From NCBI GenBank assembly GCA_022707425.1, contig JAKJAQ010000005.1:10988-74987 (forward strand): a stretch of 64,000 nt of DNA, read 5' to 3'. The notes beneath the pieces are model-generated. The model made no database searches. It was not told the DNA's origin and saw nothing but the letters and a program-made list of their open reading frames with translations. The stretch comes from Candidatus Babelota bacterium. Its GTDB lineage: Bacteria; Babelota; Babeliae; Babelales; JACPOV01. The position numbers and the translations under genes are program-made. This document shows positions 37,428 through 46,209 of the stretch, piece after piece (the first letter of the stretch is position 1; every line of letters begins with the position of its first letter).

Positions 37428-38729
37428 ATGAACATCTCAATTTTGACCGTTTTCCCTGAGTTGTACGAACCTTTTTTGAAAACAAGCTTAATTGGTCGTG
37501 CAGTCCTGCAGGGAACTGTGTCATTTGATCTCACCAGTTTTTTTTCATATTCTCCCCCAAAACAGCGCATTGATGCGCGGGCTTTTGGTCATGGTGCAGG
37601 TATGGTAATGCGTCCTGAAATTGTGGGTGCGGCAATTGAAGATAAAGAAAAAGTGCATGGCAAAGCCTTTAAAATCTTTTTTTCGCCGCAAGGTAGAAAA
37701 CTCACACAACCTGTTCTTAAAGAGATTGCTGACCGGGTTTTGCAAGCCAATAACCACCTCATGATTGTTTCTAGCCGTTATGAGGGCATGGATGACCGCA
37801 TTGAACAAAATTATGCTGATTTGACCATTTCTATAGGCGATTTTGTGCTTATGGGTGGTGATGTCCCAGCAATGGTATTGCTCGAAGGTCTTTTGCGGCT
37901 TATTCCTGGAGTAGTGGGCAAAGCAGAATCAGTTGAATATGAATCGTTTAATGGACCGTTTGTAGATTTTCCTACCTACACCACTCCCGTTATATGGAAT
38001 GGGTGGGAGGTGCCACCGGTGCTACGTTCAGGAAACCATGCGGCTATAAACAAGTGGCGCGAAGATCAAGCGATTGAAAAAACGGTAAAACACCATTTTG
38101 AGTGGGTGCGGTCATATGCACTTTCGGCTCAACAAAAAAAACAAGCAGCGGAGCGCATTCCGCCGCATTATTGTGTGCTTATGCATAGTAATGTAATGTT
38201 ACCAAATGGTGAGGTGGGTACTACTTCGGTGACTTCAATGGATATTCATGACATTGCTCGTTCAGCGCGCACCTATGGGCTGAAAAACTACTTCATAGTA
38301 ACTGAGCTTGAAGACCAAACACGAGTGGTACAAACACTGCTTGATTTTTGGCAAACCGGTTACGGCATTGAATACAATAAAAACAGGCATGAGGCGGTGA
38401 AACGAGTAAGTCTGAAAAAAACGTTTGATGAGGTGGTTGAAGCCATTAAAGAACGTGAAGGTGTCGCACCGATTGTTCTTGCGACTTCTGCAAAAACAGG
38501 AAGTGCACAATCTATTACCTATTTTGATCAGGAAAGAGTATGGAGTCATAAAAAACCAGTTCTTTTTGTACTTGGTACTGGTAAAGGATTGAGTCCTGAA
38601 CTGATGAACCGTGCTGATTATGTGCTTGAACCAGTTGAAGGATTTACCGACTTTAATCATTTATCGGTAAGAACCGCAGCGGGTGTTATTTTTGACCGTT
38701 GGTTGGGGTTGCAGCACAAAGCACGTTAA
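37428..38729 (+). CDS. trmD: tRNA (guanine37-N1)-methyltransferase TrmD fused to a C-terminal second SPOUT-like domain
   Basis: Residues 1 to about 240 are TrmD (ILTVFPELYEPFL, GHGAGMVMRPE, SSRYEGMDDR, ISIGDFVLMGGDVPAMVLLEG..RL.PGV, LRSGNHAAI.KWR). Residues from about 245 to 433 are an extra domain ending in VLFVLGTGKGLSPELM...NHLSVRTAAGVIFDRW, which resembles a SpoU/TrmH knot. Confidence 0.9.
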   Translation: MNISILTVFPELYEPFLKTSLIGRAVLQGTVSFDLTSFFSYSPPKQRIDARAFGHGAGMVMRPEIVGAAIEDKEKVHGKAFKIFFSPQGRKLTQPVLKEIADRVLQANNHLMIVSSRYEGMDDRIEQNYADLTISIGDFVLMGGDVPAMVLLEGLLRLIPGVVGKAESVEYESFNGPFVDFPTYTTPVIWNGWEVPPVLRSGNHAAINKWREDQAIEKTVKHHFEWVRSYALSAQQKKQAAERIPPHYCVLMHSNVMLPNGEVGTTSVTSMDIHDIARSARTYGLKNYFIVTELEDQTRVVQTLLDFWQTGYGIEYNKNRHEAVKRVSLKKTFDEVVEAIKEREGVAPIVLATSAKTGSAQSITYFDQERVWSHKKPVLFVLGTGKGLSPELMNRADYVLEPVEGFTDFNHLSVRTAAGVIFDRWLGLQHKAR

Positions 38730-39679: not shown

Positions 39680-40120
39680 CTATTTCATTCCGTCATCTTC
39701 AATCAAATGTTTTACTTCGTTGCGTTTCAGCTGACGCTTTTCCTTGCTTGCCTCGCGCAATTCTTTTTGTAAATCGGCTACATCTAATTTAAGATTTCGT
39801 AACTCGCTATTCAATTTTTGATTTTCTTTAAGTAAGCGTCTGTTGTCTTGTTGCAAATCTGCAATTTCGTCATCTTTGCGGGCGAGTGTACGTTCAAGAT
39901 TATTAACGCGTGAAGCTGATGCACCATTGTCGGTATAGACAACTTCTCGCACCGTTGTTCTTTCGCGCGGAGCAGTTGAGCGGCCGATCATATAACCAAT
40001 ACCACCACCAATAAGTCCCGAAGTCGCACCGCTGCCTGCATTGAGTGAGCAGGCGGCTATCATGAATACCGAAAGAATATATAAAATCTGTCTTTTCATG
40101 GTTTTATTCCTTTTTTTCAA
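39680..40120 (-). CDS. Hypothetical lipoprotein with a glycine-zipper and coiled-coil region
   Basis: MKRQILYILSVFMIAAC lipobox (alternative start at 40099), a GLIGGGIGYMIG segment, then an E/K/L-rich heptad region. Confidence 0.5.
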   Translation of the reverse strand: MKKRNKTMKRQILYILSVFMIAACSLNAGSGATSGLIGGGIGYMIGRSTAPRERTTVREVVYTDNGASASRVNNLERTLARKDDEIADLQQDNRRLLKENQKLNSELRNLKLDVADLQKELREASKEKRQLKRNEVKHLIEDDGMK

Positions 40121-40192
40121 GAAAAAATAGGATTATATTTTTATTGTACAGTATTTCTATTAGAAAATTCAATAAATGTGCGTTTTGCAAAA

Positions 40193-40238
40193 AGAAAAAA
40201 CGGCGCTTTCAATAAATATGAGTGCGCCGTTTTTTTTA
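40193..40238. terminator. Bidirectional hairpin terminator downstream of the HDAC-family gene
   Basis: Stem AACGGCGC / GCGCCGTT with a 17-nt loop, flanked by an A-run upstream and TTTTTTT downstream, so a T-tract follows it on either strand. Confidence 0.5.
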
Positions 40239-40251
40239 AAATTACGATAAA

Positions 40252-41511
40252 TTATTTCGAGTGTTTGTTTTCAAGATTTCTGATTAAATGATTGTTGTAC
40301 AAATTCACAATCGATTCACCAATTATTTGTGCGCTTTCTTTTGAATAACCACCTGAAGTTGTCATCACAAGCGGAATATTTTGTTTTTGTGCAAATCTAA
40401 AAACCATTTCATCACGTTGTATGATGCCAGCTTTAGTGAGATTCATGCGACCGAGTGCGTCACCTTCATACGGATCAGTACCAGCATTGTACACAATTAA
40501 ATCTGGTTGCCTATTAAATTTTTCACGTCCTGGAAGTTTATCGAGAGCAGTTTCAAGGCTGGTTAAATATTTGCTTCGACATTGATCGCATTTTTCGCGT
40601 TTAATGTAACGGTTTGCAGCGTTTGTTCTACATTTGTCACTGCAATAAATGTGGTATGATGTTAAAGAATTATCGATTGCATTCTCATCGGGCTTGATCT
40701 TAAATGGATAATTATTTTCATTGTAGCAATCAAGAATGAATATATTGTTATCACCAACGTAATATGAAGCAAAACCATTGCCGCGATGCGCATCAAGGTC
40801 AATATAGAGGACTTTCAAAGTAGGAATTTTTTCACGCAATTTGGTTATTGCAAGTGGCATATCAGAATAGACACAAAATCCTTCACCATACGTTCGCTTT
40901 GCATGGTGATAACCACCACCCAAATTTATTGCTGCCGTTTTATTATTAAGTGCATATTCTGCTGCATCGATGGTGCCCTGCGTTGCCAATCTCATTGGAC
41001 TCAATATATTTCTTTGTATGAGGAAGTTTGGCAATAAGCTCAATAAGGGAATACCAGTAATGCCTGCAACCACTCTTGAATTCAATCCAGTCAAATATTT
41101 TTCAGTATGTACTTTCAATAAATCTTGTTTTGACACTTCGGAAGCGGGTGCTCTAAAATGATTGTCACTTAAGTTTAATTGATTTTTAATTAATGCGTGT
41201 GCACCTTCATATTTTGTTGAATCGAATGGATGGATAGGAAGTTTTTCTATACCAAACATGCGAATGTTATAATTATCATGATAAAAAACTGGTAACTTTT
41301 GAGCATCTGCTACCGGTTTTTGTAACCATTTGTATGTTGCATTATATGCAGTTTTGCCAACCAGATACGTTCCAACGGTTGCTGCAATTATTGTTTTTGT
41401 GCTCCATTGTGTTGGATTAACTAGTTGCCAATCAACACTGTGCACTGGTTGGTGATATGAGGTTAGGGAAAAAAATAAGCACAGGGATAAGAGTATATTT
41501 TTTTGTTTCAT
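40252..41511 (-). CDS. Histone-deacetylase-superfamily enzyme, class IV (HDAC11-like), with an N-terminal signal/anchor region
   Basis: LPIHPFDSTKY, GGGYHHAKRTYGEGFCVYSD, YIDLDAHRGNG, YNAGTDPYEGD.LG and TTSGGY together give a complete catalytic signature. The N-terminus MKQKNILLSLCLFFSLTSY looks like a signal peptide. Confidence 0.85.
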   Translation of the reverse strand: MKQKNILLSLCLFFSLTSYHQPVHSVDWQLVNPTQWSTKTIIAATVGTYLVGKTAYNATYKWLQKPVADAQKLPVFYHDNYNIRMFGIEKLPIHPFDSTKYEGAHALIKNQLNLSDNHFRAPASEVSKQDLLKVHTEKYLTGLNSRVVAGITGIPLLSLLPNFLIQRNILSPMRLATQGTIDAAEYALNNKTAAINLGGGYHHAKRTYGEGFCVYSDMPLAITKLREKIPTLKVLYIDLDAHRGNGFASYYVGDNNIFILDCYNENNYPFKIKPDENAIDNSLTSYHIYCSDKCRTNAANRYIKREKCDQCRSKYLTSLETALDKLPGREKFNRQPDLIVYNAGTDPYEGDALGRMNLTKAGIIQRDEMVFRFAQKQNIPLVMTTSGGYSKESAQIIGESIVNLYNNHLIRNLENKHSK

Positions 41512-42953
41512 GCTGATTCCTCAACGTGATTTTTTTTATTTTTATTGGTATTCATTGATGAGTGTAGAGTAGTTGATTTTGTTTGCAATAGATCGGCGAG
41601 TTTATTAATTTTTCCTGCACCTTGAAGTAATATCAAATCATCAGGTTCTGTAATTGTTTCAAGAATTCGTGTTATTGATGCAAAATGTTCATCAAGCGGA
41701 GCATAATACAGTTCAAATCGTGGATTGCGTTGCGCAAGCGCTTTAACTAAATTAGCGCTCGTAATTTCAGGAATCGGATCTTCGCATGCAGCATGAATAT
41801 CAGTAATAATAAGTGCATTAATGGGACTATCGATTAATATTTGCACAAACCAATCCCACAATTTGTGTGTACGCGTAAAGCGATGCGGTTGAAAAACTAA
41901 AATGAGTTTGTTTTTTGTTCGTTTGCGTGCAACAAGCAGCGTATTGCGAATTTCTTCTGGGTGGTGGCCGTAATCATCAAAAATTTCAGCACCTAAAAAG
42001 GTGCCATGATAACTAAAGCGTCGCTCAATACCTTTAAATGAAGAAAGTGCCTGTGCGATCGTAGCAAATGGAATTTCTAAATGCAAAGCAAGAGCAGTTG
42101 CTCCAAGTGCATTAAGTACATTGTGCCGGCCGGGCATGTTAATTTGAATGGTACCAAGCGGCTGTTGCTGGTTTTTTGTGCACACATCAAAATGTGAAGA
42201 ATCAACATCGAGTAGAACATTGTGTGCATAGATATCTGCCGAATCATCAAATCCATATTTTACTGTTTTTAAGTGTGGAAGCGGTAAAATTGAGCGCGTA
42301 TGTGGATCATCGGTGCATAAAATTGCACAACCATAAAATGGTAAATTATTGAGAAATTGTTTGTACGTATCTTTAATGTCATCAATATCACGGTACGTTT
42401 CAAGATGTTCAAGATCAATATTAGTGACTAATGCAATTGTTGCATGAAGATGTAAAAATGAGCGATCGCTATCATCAGCTTCCGCAACTAAAAAATCACC
42501 ACTGCCCCAGCGAGCGTTAGCAGAAATGTTTTTTAAGTGGCCACCAATAATCACCGTTGGATCCATTTTTGCTTCAATCAGAATATGCGAAATGAGTGAA
42601 GTAGTAGTAGTTTTTCCATGTGCTCCAGTAATTGCAATGCTGTATTTCGTGCGCATTAATTCTGCAAGCATGAGTGCACGACGAATGGTTGGAATGCCAC
42701 GTTTCTGCGCAGCAACTAATTCAGGATGATCAAGTCTAATCATTGTTGAATACACTACCACATCAATTGAAGAATCATGGCAACCGTGAGAGTTGTTTCC
42801 TTGAAATACGGTGCACCCGCTTGCTTGGAGGTCAATAACACTTTGTTGCTGCAAATCATTATCACAACCGGAAATGATGTAACCTTGATTTTTCAAAATT
42901 TGAGCAATCCCGCTCATGCCAATGCCACCAATTCCAACAAAATGAATGTGCAT
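41508..42953 (-). CDS. murC: UDP-N-acetylmuramate--L-alanine ligase
   Basis: MHIHFVGIGGIGMSGIAQIL, ITGAHGKTTTTS, and Mur ligase middle and C-terminal domain blocks. The start could instead be the upstream Met at 42971. Confidence 0.93.
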   Translation of the reverse strand: MHIHFVGIGGIGMSGIAQILKNQGYIISGCDNDLQQQSVIDLQASGCTVFQGNNSHGCHDSSIDVVVYSTMIRLDHPELVAAQKRGIPTIRRALMLAELMRTKYSIAITGAHGKTTTTSLISHILIEAKMDPTVIIGGHLKNISANARWGSGDFLVAEADDSDRSFLHLHATIALVTNIDLEHLETYRDIDDIKDTYKQFLNNLPFYGCAILCTDDPHTRSILPLPHLKTVKYGFDDSADIYAHNVLLDVDSSHFDVCTKNQQQPLGTIQINMPGRHNVLNALGATALALHLEIPFATIAQALSSFKGIERRFSYHGTFLGAEIFDDYGHHPEEIRNTLLVARKRTKNKLILVFQPHRFTRTHKLWDWFVQILIDSPINALIITDIHAACEDPIPEITSANLVKALAQRNPRFELYYAPLDEHFASITRILETITEPDDLILLQGAGKINKLADLLQTKSTTLHSSMNTNKNKKNHVEESA

Positions 42954-43029
42954 TTTTTTTCGACGATACATTACGATCCTTCATGTTGATGTCTATGCGT
43001 GAAATTAATGTATCAAAAAAATAATGAGA

Positions 43030-43359
43030 TCAATATAATTTCCCACCATTGGGCACTTCATTGATGGGCATCAAGAGCGTTGGTTGTTTATCTTCATTTG
43101 GTACACCCAGTGTTAATACCTCCGAAATAAATGGACCAATCTGTTTTGGTGCAAAATTAACGACGGCGATTATTTGTTTACCCAGCAATAATTCTTTCGT
43201 GTACTGCGTAATTTGGGCCGACGATTTTTTGATGCCAATTGTTAGACCAAAATCAATTGTGAGTTTGTATGCCGGTTTGCGAGCTTCAGGAAAATCGTCG
43301 ACTGCAATAATAGTACCAACACGAATATCAACTTGTTCAAAATCGTGATACGAAATCAT
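43030..43359 (-). CDS. tRNA-binding domain protein (CsaA/Trbp111-like)
   Basis: FEQVDIRVGTIIAVDDFPEARKPAYKLTIDFG....KKSSAQIT..Y....L.GKQIIAVVNF.PK.IG...SEVL.LG. I trimmed the ORF to the Met that ends its overlap with the symporter gene. Confidence 0.8.
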   Translation of the reverse strand: MISYHDFEQVDIRVGTIIAVDDFPEARKPAYKLTIDFGLTIGIKKSSAQITQYTKELLLGKQIIAVVNFAPKQIGPFISEVLTLGVPNEDKQPTLLMPINEVPNGGKLY

Positions 43360-43370
43360 ACCAATTCCTT

Positions 43371-44783
43371 TTATGCAGCGCGACGCGATGAGGTAAAAAA
43401 CGAAACAATAAAAATCAGTGCTAATCCCACGACAAAACCGGGGGCAAGTGGCATGATGTTCAACTGAAGATGTGGCCATACAATACCAAAAGCACCACCA
43501 AAGAGCATGGCACAAATTGCACCATATTGGTTTACCTTTTTTAAATATAATGCTGAAATTACCGTTGGTGCAAAAGCAAGGCCAAGGCCTGACCATGCAT
43601 AGGTTACTAAATCGTTAATGGTGCTTGTGCTGTTGCGTGCAATAACGTAGGCAATAAGAGGTAAAAACACAACGCACGCGCGAATAATAAAAAGCGAAGC
43701 ATTGGCACTTAACGGACGCTTGATAATTCGTTTAATAAAATCTTCAGAAATGTTTGATGCAGTTGCCAAAATCTGTGCGGTCATAACTGACATGGTTGCA
43801 GCAACAATCGCGCACAAAACTAATCCTGCAAAAAGTGGATGAAACAGTTCTTTTACCATTTCAATATAAACTAATTCTCGGTTTGCAAGCGGTGTTGCAA
43901 AAAATTGAGTACCAAGCCAGCCAATAATTGTTGCCGCAGTCAAAACAATGATTTGCCACGTAATACCAATATATTTTGCCTGATTAATTTTTTCCGGTTC
44001 TTTAATGCCCATGAAATTAATTAAAATGTGTGGAGAACCAAAATAACCAAGCCCCCAACCGGTTGATAAAATGAGTATTTGGCTAAGCGTTGCATATGAA
44101 AAATCTGGTACCACCTGTGTTGTAAGCCATGAAAGAGAAAATGTTGAACTTGTTCCAAGATGCATCCAAGCGAACAAGGGAACAATGCAAATCATTACCA
44201 CTAAAAACAGGCCACGGAACATGTCTCCCCAGGCAACAGCAACGAAACCGCCAACTAAAATGTTAATCACAACAATTAATATGCTGATTGCAACGCCATA
44301 ATCATAACTAATGCCAAAGGTGGATTGAAAAAGGCGCCCAAGGCCAATGAGGCCGGCAGCAATATAATAACTTAAAAAATAGAGCGTAAAAAAGACGGTC
44401 ATGAGGCGCAATAATCCTGAACTATCTTCAAAGCGTCGTTCAAAAAATGAAGCGAGTGTAACGCTGTGATATTTTTCCGTTTCAATGCGTAATCGCGGAG
44501 CAATAAAGTGCCAATTAAGAAACATGAAAACAACTAAACCAACTGCAACCCAACCATAAAAAAGGCCGCAACCATAAATGAGCCCAGGATAGCCCATGAA
44601 CAACCAATCGCTCATGTCGCTTGCTTGTGCGGCGATTGCAGCCACCCAATAACTCACTGAACGATTTGCTAAAATAAATGCACCAGCATTACGATTTTTG
44701 CGGTAAAAATAAAGACTCACCCCAAAGAAAAAGGCAAAGTACGCTATAAATGAAATCAGATAGTAACTATTCATATGATACAA
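43371..44783 (-). CDS. Sodium:solute symporter family transporter (PutP/PanF-like)
   Basis: About 13 predicted TM segments. The N-terminal FILANRSVSYWVAAIAAQASDMSDWLFMGYPGLIY is a typical SSF signature. Confidence 0.8.
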   Translation of the reverse strand: MYHMNSYYLISFIAYFAFFFGVSLYFYRKNRNAGAFILANRSVSYWVAAIAAQASDMSDWLFMGYPGLIYGCGLFYGWVAVGLVVFMFLNWHFIAPRLRIETEKYHSVTLASFFERRFEDSSGLLRLMTVFFTLYFLSYYIAAGLIGLGRLFQSTFGISYDYGVAISILIVVINILVGGFVAVAWGDMFRGLFLVVMICIVPLFAWMHLGTSSTFSLSWLTTQVVPDFSYATLSQILILSTGWGLGYFGSPHILINFMGIKEPEKINQAKYIGITWQIIVLTAATIIGWLGTQFFATPLANRELVYIEMVKELFHPLFAGLVLCAIVAATMSVMTAQILATASNISEDFIKRIIKRPLSANASLFIIRACVVFLPLIAYVIARNSTSTINDLVTYAWSGLGLAFAPTVISALYLKKVNQYGAICAMLFGGAFGIVWPHLQLNIMPLAPGFVVGLALIFIVSFFTSSRRAA

Positions 44784-45078: not shown

Positions 45079-45627
45079 GTGAAGATCAAAAAATATTATT
45101 GTTTATTTCTTTTCAGTTCACTCATGTATGGAATGGAAACTTCAAACATTCAGCTGGATGAATTTAACTCAATTCTGTTGAATGATATTAAGTTGATGCT
45201 TCAGCGTGACAAGCATTCAATTGACAATTTGACTAATTACGATTCATTAATAACCAATATTTGCAAAGGAAATACTACCGAGTTTCAAGTGTTTCGAACG
45301 GTAGAATTTAAAACTCGGACGCTCACAAAGCCTGAACTTGTAGGATTTATTCATTATCTTACGGTTAAAAATAGTTTTCTGTGTATCGAATCTGATAAAA
45401 TTACTTATATCAAAGCATTAATTATAAAGCAAAATGAACGACGCAACGGACATGGAACATTTTTGCTGCAATCAATGTTACGTGACATTGACCCTCAGGT
45501 TAATGAAGTTCATGTACGGATTGCTCATGATAATAAGGCGGCGCAAAAATTATTTGAGCGAAACAATTTTAAACATTGTGCGTACAATGGTAATTATAAC
45601 GATTATTGCTTGAGGATAGAAAACTAA
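45079..45627 (+). CDS. GNAT-family N-acetyltransferase with a hydrophobic N-terminus
   Basis: The acetyl-CoA motif RRNGHGTFLLQSML and the C-terminal NKAAQKLFERNNFKH. The N-terminus MKIKKYYCLFLFSSLMYG looks like a signal peptide. GTG start. Confidence 0.7.
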   Translation: MKIKKYYCLFLFSSLMYGMETSNIQLDEFNSILLNDIKLMLQRDKHSIDNLTNYDSLITNICKGNTTEFQVFRTVEFKTRTLTKPELVGFIHYLTVKNSFLCIESDKITYIKALIIKQNERRNGHGTFLLQSMLRDIDPQVNEVHVRIAHDNKAAQKLFERNNFKHCAYNGNYNDYCLRIEN

Positions 45628-45639
45628 AAAGGGGATATT

Positions 45640-46209
45640 ATGGAATTGGGAGCAATGTTATTACCAGCATTTATGTTGCAAATGTTGGGTGAAGAGCCGC
45701 CACAAAAATCGATCAATAAAACAAAATCAGAGATTATTGCAACTACGCAAATCGACTATATGAAATTCGATATCATGCGGGGAAAAAAAATAAAAGATAA
45801 GCGTGAAGATTGGATGACTGAAGATATTGGATTGGTAACATCGGCCAGTAAGCATCGAATATTATTGCTTAATAATAAAAAATGTGGTTTTGCCCGTTAT
45901 CGAACCATTCAATCGAGCAACCGTCTTGGCAGTTATGCATTCGTAGATAGATTTTGTATTGCATTTTGGCATTGCAAGGATAAAGAAGAAATAAATACTA
46001 CCTATGAAGCATTGTATCAGGCAATTCGCAAAGATTTAAAATTCCCTCGTTCGGTTGAACTTATTATTCCACAGACAGATGTCCTTACTCAAAATTGGTG
46101 CCGAGCCCGTGGATTTAAAAAAATGTATAAATATAATGAGAAGCCATTAGTCAGTTATCTTATGTCATTTCGTAATTCTGCATGTATAGATGACTCAGAA
46201 AGTGACTGA
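45640..46209 (+). CDS. Hypothetical protein, possibly a degenerate GNAT fold
   Basis: Only the C-terminal NWCRARGFKK and the overall size resemble a GNAT; no Q/RxxGxG/A motif is visible. The 3' end overlaps the convergent cryptochrome-like gene by 55 nt. Confidence 0.35.
   Translation: MELGAMLLPAFMLQMLGEEPPQKSINKTKSEIIATTQIDYMKFDIMRGKKIKDKREDWMTEDIGLVTSASKHRILLLNNKKCGFARYRTIQSSNRLGSYAFVDRFCIAFWHCKDKEEINTTYEALYQAIRKDLKFPRSVELIIPQTDVLTQNWCRARGFKKMYKYNEKPLVSYLMSFRNSACIDDSESD

Follow-up and report, generated by a model that had tools for sequence, protein, structure and literature searches.

An HDAC11-type class IV deacylase with a predicted export signal and a candidate second zinc site in a Dependentiae bacterium

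The gene described here lies on the minus strand of a 64,000-nucleotide window of contig JAKJAQ010000005.1 (positions 10,988 to 74,987), from the genome of Candidatus Babelota bacterium, a protist-parasitic member of the phylum Dependentiae (Babeliales). It encodes a class IV zinc deacylase of the HDAC11 type that begins with a predicted Sec signal peptide and carries, within its catalytic domain, a lineage-specific insertion with four regularly spaced cysteines. Taken together, the data favor an exported, clade B-like deacylase of the envelope or host interface that would hold a second, structural zinc ion and hydrolyze N-acyl amides; we put the probability of this combined interpretation at about 0.58. 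The open reading frame (ORF) had been delimited in a first-pass annotation, in which its strand was left unstated, and the limits given there were found to be exact. All positions refer to the window (Table 1).

Catalytic domain and class IV membership

Pfam family Hist_deacetyl (PF00850) matched residues 94-396 of the protein with an E-value of 4.8e-48 and 164.5 bits, against a cutoff of 27.9 bits. No NCBIfam model matched the deacylase. The sequence blocks by which the enzyme had originally been recognized were all present, namely HPFDSTKY (residues 94-101), GGGYHH (198-203), DLDAHRGNG (238-246), GTDPYEGD (344-351), and SGGY (386-389). His202, His203, Asp240, His242, Asp346, and Tyr389 were invariant in an alignment of 117 homologous sequences. 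The AlphaFold2 (AF2) model derived from 117 homologues had a mean predicted local distance difference test score (pLDDT) of 92. When Foldseek was used for comparison with solved structures, the top 50 matches were HDAC-family chains without exception, and the best of them was 9gz5 with a TM-score of 0.84 on the target.

Sequence comparison with the PDB gave the HDAC11 of Leptospira interrogans (9GZ5/9RJD) as the best match, with an E-value of 8.7e-36; structure 9GZ5 was solved with a C12 fatty acid, dodecenoic acid, bound. The other matches from class IV or cluster 5 were the clade A HDAC11 of Chlamydomonas (9RJE, 3.4e-25) and HdaH of Vibrio cholerae (9GKV/9GKY, 6.8e-25). The identities of these chains were taken from PMC13325672 and PMC11532494. 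The best class I chain reached an E-value of 2.4e-16. In a pairwise alignment that spanned the whole catalytic domain, the protein shared 40% identity with a mammalian HDAC11 (E 4e-80), and its homologues are named "histone deacetylase 11" in the databases. The original class IV call is thus upheld by E-values that are far better for class IV than for class I chains, by the 40% identity, and by the intact catalytic residues. Membership in the AcuC/APAH group or in class I/II is ruled out by the E-values and the signature residues.

Class IV enzymes of clade B are distinguished by HPFD in loop L1, where an Arg replaces the Pro in clade A, and by a bulky Phe or Tyr as foot-pocket gatekeeper in GGG[F/Y]HH. 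They also lack the Arg-Glu salt bridge that closes the foot pocket, the position being occupied by Pro113 in the human and by Ser94 in the Leptospira enzyme (PMC13325672). The protein studied here shows HPFD, the gatekeeper Tyr201, and Pro172, which aligns with human Pro113 (LSPMR versus LRPLR). At the position of the clade B residue Glu94 it has Gly151; the Glu is kept in the relatives P0005, P0006, P0010, P0016, P0017, and P0021. Glu94 resides in loop L2 and contacts and positions the peptide backbone, Gly is the clade A state, and the E94G exchange leads mainly to a loss of short-chain activity (PMC13325672). Loop L1 contains two additional residues, "PI," in front of HPFD, which were private to the studied protein among the sequences aligned. 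As judged from its sequence, the deacylase is a catalytically complete class IV, clade B-like zinc amidohydrolase that is predicted to be active. Gly151 and the modified L1 loop suggest an altered, possibly non-peptide, substrate recognition.

Predicted export signal

The protein starts with MKQKNILLSLCLFFSLTSY, and about 57-68 residues, depending on the comparator, precede the conserved LPVFY. The N-terminus was examined by a rule-based reading that asks for a positively charged n-region, an h-region of 7-15 residues, and small residues at -3 and -1. It was resolved into the n-region MKQK, the 15-residue h-region NILLSLCLFFSLTSY, and the c-region HQPVHS/VD (the slash denotes the predicted cleavage site) with Val at -3 and Ser at -1, as is typical of a Sec substrate of signal peptidase I (SPI). 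Membrane insertion energies were estimated as crude Hessa-scale sums, and the 13 transmembrane (TM) helices of the neighboring SSF transporter served as control. For a 19-mer of the signal peptide a value of +8.0 was obtained, compared with -1.4 to +6.0 for the control helices.

Relatives with 44-50% identity retain the same design, with predicted cleavage sites AQA/M, TKA/M, TEA/S, LLA/L, and SIA/K. A hydrophobic N-terminus was seen in every Dependentiae homologue in which the N-terminus was readable, irrespective of whether the insertion was present. The N-termini of 205 close homologues could be assessed: 106 were SPI-like, 9 contained a lipobox, 14 were anchor-like, and 22 had two hydrophobic segments (together ~74%), while 32 had no N-terminal extension and 22 had a non-hydrophobic one. 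In the anchor-like group, a long, very hydrophobic segment is flanked by strongly positive residues on its N-terminal side and by acidic ones on its C-terminal side. Among named genomes, versions with a signal, a lipobox, or an anchor were found in Patescibacteria, Cloacimonadota, Omnitrophota, Bacteroidota, Spirochaetota, Elusimicrobiota, and others; those with a lipobox or an anchor came from Cloacimonadota, Spirochaetota, Bacteroidota, Elusimicrobiota, and Patescibacteria. Plain cytoplasmic versions occurred in Planctomycetota, many Bacteroidia, and cyanobacteria. At least eight members of the insertion-bearing clade carry a signal peptide and no other hydrophobic segment, so that their catalytic domain must be located outside the cytoplasm. 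That N-termini of the signal-peptide, lipobox, and anchor kinds are conserved across the family argues for export, which had been proposed for the single protein at the outset. Predicted export signals are common in this branch of the bacterial class IV enzymes and not peculiar to the studied gene. Bacterial export signals are not discussed in the text of one recent survey (PMC11532494), and targeting signals are treated for eukaryotes only in another (PMC13325672). No Dependentiae sequences were found in the supplementary material of either survey, and the supplement of the MBE paper was likewise without bacterial rows.

At three loci of Patescibacteria (L026, L028, and L030), class IV homologues were found with long anchors that have strongly basic N-flanks and acidic "DDW/SDEW" C-flanks. 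This sequence pattern suggests that another lineage of lipid scavengers displays deacylases on its surface.

Second hydrophobic helix

The second hydrophobic stretch, which the first-pass annotation had also mentioned, is present as TIIAATVGTYLVG at residues 40-52. It belongs to a module (residues 32-65) that is ~65% identical to the corresponding part of the closest relatives, P0002-4, as counted by eye; the signal peptide itself is not conserved to this extent. The tail behind the helix contains Tyr, Trp, and Lys. The AF2 model showed a continuous helix of 26 residues (38-63) with a pLDDT of ~88. The best 19-mer yielded a crude insertion energy of +7.8, which is worse than the values for all 13 control helices. 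Within the insertion clade, some members have the module and others lack it. A stop-transfer function would imply that the catalytic domain has switched membrane sides repeatedly in this clade. A translocated second helix, possibly with a membrane-interacting or structural role, is therefore favored, with a weak TM segment as the alternative.

Cysteine insertion and candidate zinc site

The three best solved relatives each aligned with the protein in two pieces, and the break was always located between residues ~271-276 and 314-334. These two-piece alignments indicate a true insertion. It contains Cys290, Cys294, Cys308, and Cys311 in the spacing C-x3-C-x13-C-x2-C, exactly at the nucleotides 40579-40644 to which the Cys4 pattern had been assigned. 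Its length varies from 23 to 40 residues, and it is specific to one Dependentiae clade. The pattern C-x2-4-[C/H]-x3-21-C-x2-C-x3-5-Y was found in 21 proteins, in which ligands 1, 3, and 4 are invariant Cys residues; at ligand 2, 10 of them have Cys and 11 have His. An exchange of Cys for His at ligand 2 would be tolerated by a metal site but not by a disulfide, so that a structural zinc is favored. Two short-spaced pairs, their conservation, and the Cys/His exchange correspond to the ligand pattern of zinc ribbons and zinc knuckles. Structure prediction of the insertion, as the first-pass annotation had recommended, gave a confident AF2 model with pLDDT values of 89-97, and the pairs Cys290/Cys294 and Cys308/Cys311 were positioned where helices 292-299 and 309-328 start. 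Most likely, a second, structural zinc with the ligands Cys, Cys or His, Cys, and Cys organizes the fold of the insertion.

When the insertion alone or the N-terminal module alone was searched against Pfam and the PDB, nothing significant was found. The best matches were DUF7576 (E 0.018) and a C-terminal CSxxCRTN stretch of TrhO (E 0.95); neither was significant, and the latter was treated as a chance match.

DsbA, DsbB, and VKOR were not found in the 98.8%-complete genome; DsbD was present. Exported-like ORFs showed no bias toward even numbers of cysteines, which lends weak support because the export classifier was crude and home-made; it left out the studied deacylase itself on account of the hydrophobic L2 loop. 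From these two observations it is deduced that a thiolate zinc site could survive outside the cytoplasm.

Phylogeny and distribution

Two trees containing animal and ciliate sequences were calculated with IQ-TREE in quick mode (model LG+C20) from 318 shared columns, with the columns of the insertion excluded and with the root placed on clade A/cluster 5b. Support values are those of the quick mode, and the eukaryotic sampling comprised animals and ciliates but not Amoebozoa. All 18 insertion-bearing proteins in the tree formed one clade, with Shimodaira-Hasegawa-like approximate likelihood ratio test (SH-aLRT) values of 98-99. This clade adjoined other bacterial proteins, among them one Babeliales protein without the insertion. 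The HDAC11 proteins of animals and ciliates formed a separate clade (SH-aLRT 98-99). Bacterial homologues from many phyla were 42-48% identical to the studied protein and were thus as close as, or closer than, animal HDAC11. Those close homologues that carry an organism name came from Candidatus Babeliales/Dependentiae, and most homologues were metagenome proteins. A homologue was present in 48 of 261 Dependentiae genomes, some of which have two copies. Thus, the gene is accessory within the phylum.

Two further observations concern the sampled sequences. The metagenome proteins P0204, P0221, and P0222 clustered with HDAC11 of Tetrahymena and Stentor and shared their multi-TM N-terminal anchors, implying that some "metagenome" class IV matches are ciliate genes. 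In P0023 (EukProt NODE_759), the signal peptide is of the bacterial type and ends in AGGK; the protein groups with signal-bearing metagenome proteins outside the eukaryote clade and is probably a bacterial contaminant of the eukaryote assembly.

Comparison with known systems

Leptospira HDAC11 (liHDAC11/B), for which a fatty acid-binding foot pocket has been characterized, has HPFD, the GGG[F/Y]HH gatekeeper, the zinc ligands, and the catalytic Tyr in common with the studied enzyme. It differs in its length of 305 residues, in the lack of a signal peptide and of an insertion at the position corresponding to residues 276-314, and in the retention of Glu84, the Glu94 equivalent; the identity in the structural alignment is ~28%. 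Eukaryotic HDAC11 is N-myristoylated, and membrane association is a theme that it shares with the studied protein. Human and animal HDAC11, a lysine defatty-acylase, exhibits the same block order and the same catalytic residues. However, the animal enzymes are cytosolic or nuclear, have neither signal peptide nor second helix nor Cys/His insertion, carry Glu94 instead of Gly, and form a clade of their own. HdaH of V. cholerae, a de-decanoylase of cluster 5b and the second-best fold match, resembles the studied protein as a cluster 5 member with an extended foot pocket and SGGYHH/GGGY motifs (PMC11532494). It is more distant, shows no evident signal peptide or insertion in the aligned chain, and served as outgroup in the trees. 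In the clade B HDAC11s of the ciliates Tetrahymena, Stentor, and Paramecium, hydrophobic targeting segments also precede the enzyme (PMC13325672), but these are multi-TM anchors directed to the endoplasmic reticulum, and the proteins group with animal HDAC11 and are devoid of the zinc insertion.

Two other systems are related to the deacylase in concept. Class IIa HDACs such as HDAC4 and HDAC7 possess a structural zinc-binding subdomain, which shows that an HDAC domain can accommodate a Cys/His zinc site besides the catalytic one. That subdomain is located between early loops near the active-site entrance, i.e. at another position of the fold, and bears no sequence relationship to the insertion. 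The second system is LphD/Smh1 of Legionella pneumophila, which is delivered by a type IV route. The initial comparison with HDAC-like effectors of Legionella holds in concept, in that a bacterium delivers a zinc deacetylase to a eukaryotic host, but fails for family membership, because LphD is a cluster 3 (ApaH-like) protein and the nearest relatives of the deacylase belong to class IV/cluster 5 (PMC11532494). Furthermore, LphD is described as a secreted para-effector rather than a protein with a Sec signal (PMC11532494).

Proposed function

The source genome (1.03 Mb, 37% GC, 89% coding) contains a single HDAC gene. A ketoacyl synthase was not found in it; one PlsC-type acyltransferase was present. 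In the cultured Dependentiae representative C. destructans, lipid biosynthesis is absent, and signal peptides are found on 44% of the coding sequences (PMC6561590). In the proposed mechanism, a Sec signal peptide would be cleaved near residue 25, and the catalytic domain would act outside the bacterial cytoplasm. The enzyme would most likely stay at the envelope or at the host interface, where the weakly hydrophobic second helix may hold it. By analogy with human and Leptospira HDAC11, it may hydrolyze medium- to long-chain N-acyl amides such as N-epsilon-fatty-acyl-lysine. The substrates could be host-derived or envelope N-acyl compounds, in an organism that appears unable to make fatty acids.

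Several points weigh against this interpretation. Cys-based zinc sites are unusual in exported proteins, and the clade member P0011 has neither Cys nor His at ligand 2. Hydrophobicity and the -3/-1 positions were analyzed with home-made procedures, and by the crude rule about one-third of the genome's ORFs of at least 100 residues would bear a signal, so that the rule may over-call. The clade A-like Gly151 goes with enzymes that are inactive on peptides (PMC13325672). Finally, the second helix would place the catalytic domain in the cytoplasm if it were a stop-transfer segment. The stretch that follows it is rich in Lys and aromatic residues (+4/-1), as the positive-inside rule demands of a cytoplasmic flank, and some homologues have a more hydrophobic second segment with a clearer glycine zipper.

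An enzyme that is tethered to the inner membrane and faces the cytoplasm, either through a hydrophobic hairpin or through a cleaved signal combined with a type I anchor, and thereby resembles N-myristoylated HDAC11, would account for the last two features. It would also agree with the uninterrupted 26-residue helix of the AF2 model and with the fact that Cys/His zinc sites are typical of cytoplasmic proteins. This topology is nevertheless unlikely: the hydrophobic core comprises only 13 residues, its crude insertion energy lies beyond the range of the control helices, the segment comes and goes within the clade, and relatives with a lipobox or a type II anchor place the domain outside the cytoplasm. 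An exported enzyme might, on the other hand, leave the bacterium altogether. Released by type II-like machinery or by outer-membrane vesicles, it would deacylate proteins of the protist host by removing acetyl or fatty-acyl groups from histones or from lysine-fatty-acylated GTPases, with the zinc module serving targeting or interaction. Such a host-directed effector is a possibility that we consider only tentatively. Presumed host-directed proteins of Dependentiae do use Sec signals, as exemplified by 78% of the ankyrin-repeat proteins of C. destructans (PMC6561590), and the source genome encodes two secretins and two ATPases of the type II secretion system/type IV pilus type. The accessory, patchy distribution of the gene with paralogues in some genomes, the preference of clade B enzymes for peptide substrates, the reducing host cytosol, in which a Cys/His zinc module would be at home, and a GNAT acetyltransferase with an export-like N-terminus that is encoded 4 kb away in conserved synteny also fit this idea. 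However, signal-bearing enzymes of this type are found in many phyla that are not known for intracellular parasitism, which implies that export predates an effector role; for this reason, a deacylase of the envelope or host interface is slightly preferred over a released effector. Moreover, a route from the periplasm to the host cytosol has not been demonstrated for Dependentiae, the Gly in place of Glu94 makes peptide substrates less likely, and Pfam detected no nuclear-targeting or eukaryote-interaction domain.

The remaining explanations concern single features of the gene. In a probably exported protein with four Cys residues in two close pairs, and with an even number of six in the mature form, the insertion could be a surface loop stapled by disulfides (Cys290-Cys311 plus Cys294-Cys308, or similar). 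This is improbable, since His, which cannot form a disulfide, takes the place of ligand 2 in about half of the pattern-bearing proteins. The absence of DsbA, DsbB, and VKOR next to a reducing DsbD and the unbiased Cys counts speak against it as well. Very little speaks for a recent acquisition from the eukaryotic host, i.e. the capture of a class IV HDAC by the parasite. The 40% identity to animal HDAC11 and the many eukaryote-like genes carried by Dependentiae (PMC6561590) would be compatible with it, but the animal and ciliate proteins form one clade, and the insertion clade (SH-aLRT 99) is placed elsewhere, beside other bacterial proteins; bacterial homologues from many phyla are, moreover, equally close or closer. 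Horizontal transfer from eukaryotes, for which a phylogeny had been recommended as a check, is accordingly not supported by the two trees. Least credible of all is a functional coupling to MurC, with the deacylase acting on peptidoglycan precursors or cell wall-linked substrates. The two genes do overlap, the TGA of murC (41510-41508) and the ATG of the deacylase gene (41511-41509) sharing the ATGA noticed earlier; no terminator separates them, one follows the deacylase gene, and two to three close relatives also have the two genes side by side. In these relatives (contigs L007-L009), murC is directly upstream with a gap of 9-10 nucleotides and without overlap. The next relatives P0005, P0006, and P0017 reside in three other contexts, beside ogt and dnaX or beside rapZ and ctpA, and contexts without murC were seen at loci L001-L006; linkage to mur genes is therefore confined to L007-L009. 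Four-nucleotide overlaps occur in 51 of the 587 same-strand gene pairs of this densely coding genome. In addition, MurC works in the cytoplasm, whereas the deacylase bears an export signal, and peptidoglycan deacetylases have another fold (CE4). The overlap had been read as a clue to a cell wall function; given the synteny in relatives and the frequency of such overlaps, this coupling is rejected. The overlap looks incidental, and murC and the deacylase gene are likely co-transcribed without functional meaning.

Class IV HDACs are the least understood of the classical deacylases, and to date those of bacteria have been regarded as soluble enzymes of the cytoplasm. Should the export signal prove real, HDAC11 chemistry, the removal of long fatty acyl groups from amines, would also work outside the bacterial cytoplasm, and one would have to ask which N-acyl compounds are available there or in the host as substrates. 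If the insertion binds zinc, the Cys/His module of Dependentiae would, after class IIa, be the second structural zinc site grafted onto the HDAC fold. With one HDAC gene in a parasite genome of 1 Mb that lacks a fatty acid synthase and a Dsb oxidase, the system is compact and open to testing. A broader and more speculative idea, to which we give little weight at present, is that exported HDAC11-type defatty-acylases are widespread and unrecognized and that in lipid-auxotrophic parasites and episymbionts, namely Dependentiae and Patescibacteria, they strip fatty acyl chains from host molecules, with the zinc module serving as a targeting device. The host-interface substrates would then be lysine-acylated proteins or N-acyl lipids, and the purpose would be host manipulation or fatty acid harvest.

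Table 1. Features of the deacylase gene and its immediate surroundings, in coordinates of the window
Feature	Residues	Coordinates	Strand	Basis
Class IV HDAC11-type zinc deacylase, coding sequence (419 amino acids plus stop)	1-419	40252..41511	minus	PF00850, AF2, fold match
Sec/SPI-type signal peptide (predicted)	1-25	41437..41511	minus	n/h/c regions, rule-based
NPxxW motif, Gly/Ala/Thr-rich hydrophobic helix (13-residue core), aromatic/basic tail	32-65	41317..41418	minus	Alignment
Catalytic domain, arginase/deacetylase fold	72-410	40282..41298	minus	Pfam, PDB matches, alignment, Foldseek
HPFD motif of loop L1, clade B signature	His94-Pro95-Phe96-Asp97	41221..41232	minus	Signature according to PMC13325672
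Gly at the position of human HDAC11 Glu94 (ITGIP versus ITEIP)	Gly151	41059..41061	minus	Alignment with mammalian HDAC11
GGGYHH, foot-pocket gatekeeper and catalytic His residues	Tyr201; His202/His203	40903..40920	minus	Invariant His columns
DLDAH, zinc ligands; monovalent-cation ligand by homology	Asp240, His242; Asp238	40786..40800	minus	Invariant columns
Lineage-specific insertion, proposed structural zinc site	277-313	40573..40683	minus	PDB alignment break, family pattern, AF2
YNAGTD, third catalytic zinc ligand	Asp346	40474..40491	minus	Invariant column
SGGY, catalytic Tyr	Tyr389	40345..40356	minus	Invariant column
murC (UDP-N-acetylmuramate-L-alanine ligase), upstream gene		41508..42971	minus	Three Mur ligase domains
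GAGGA, Shine-Dalgarno-like element inside murC, 6 nucleotides upstream of the deacylase ATG		41518..41522	minus	Sequence read
Intrinsic terminator, hairpin with 12-bp stem followed by UUUUUUCUUUUU, ~17 nucleotides past the deacylase stop		40183..40235	minus	Folding

Genomic surroundings

The local gene order is SSF symporter, tRNA-binding protein, murC, and deacylase, followed by the terminator hairpin. With its long loop, this hairpin was missed by a pattern scan and was detected by folding. Its free energy was -21.2 kcal/mol (z -4.0), and none of 200 shuffled sequences was as stable.

Just downstream of the terminator, a 146-residue ORF (39680-40120, minus strand) has a lipoprotein-like N-terminus (…VFMIAAC/S), a Gly-rich stretch, and a C-terminal coiled coil, for which Pfam gave only weak, sub-threshold coiled-coil matches. 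A 132-residue ORF is found at the equivalent place in the relatives L007-L009.

The GNAT acetyltransferase (FR47/Acetyltransf_1) with the signal-like N-terminus is encoded at 45079-45627 on the plus strand. Next to it, at 45640-46209 on the same strand, lies an ORF without any Pfam family match. The pair belongs to the same synteny block in L007 and L009 and is absent from the loci of P0005, P0006, and P0017. If it bears an export signal, this acyl-CoA-dependent GNAT would be a curiously fitting partner for an exported deacylase.

Two other neighboring genes showed peculiarities. A 433-residue TrmD is encoded at 37428-38729 (plus strand) and has a second domain, which is recorded as PF09936 (Methyltrn_RNA_4) in the orthologues of L007-L009. 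The tRNA_bind (CsaA-like) ORF at 43030-43596 (minus strand), called with 188 residues, extends into the end of the SSF symporter gene. In relatives it comprises 109 residues, and the true start is therefore probably an internal Met near residue 79.

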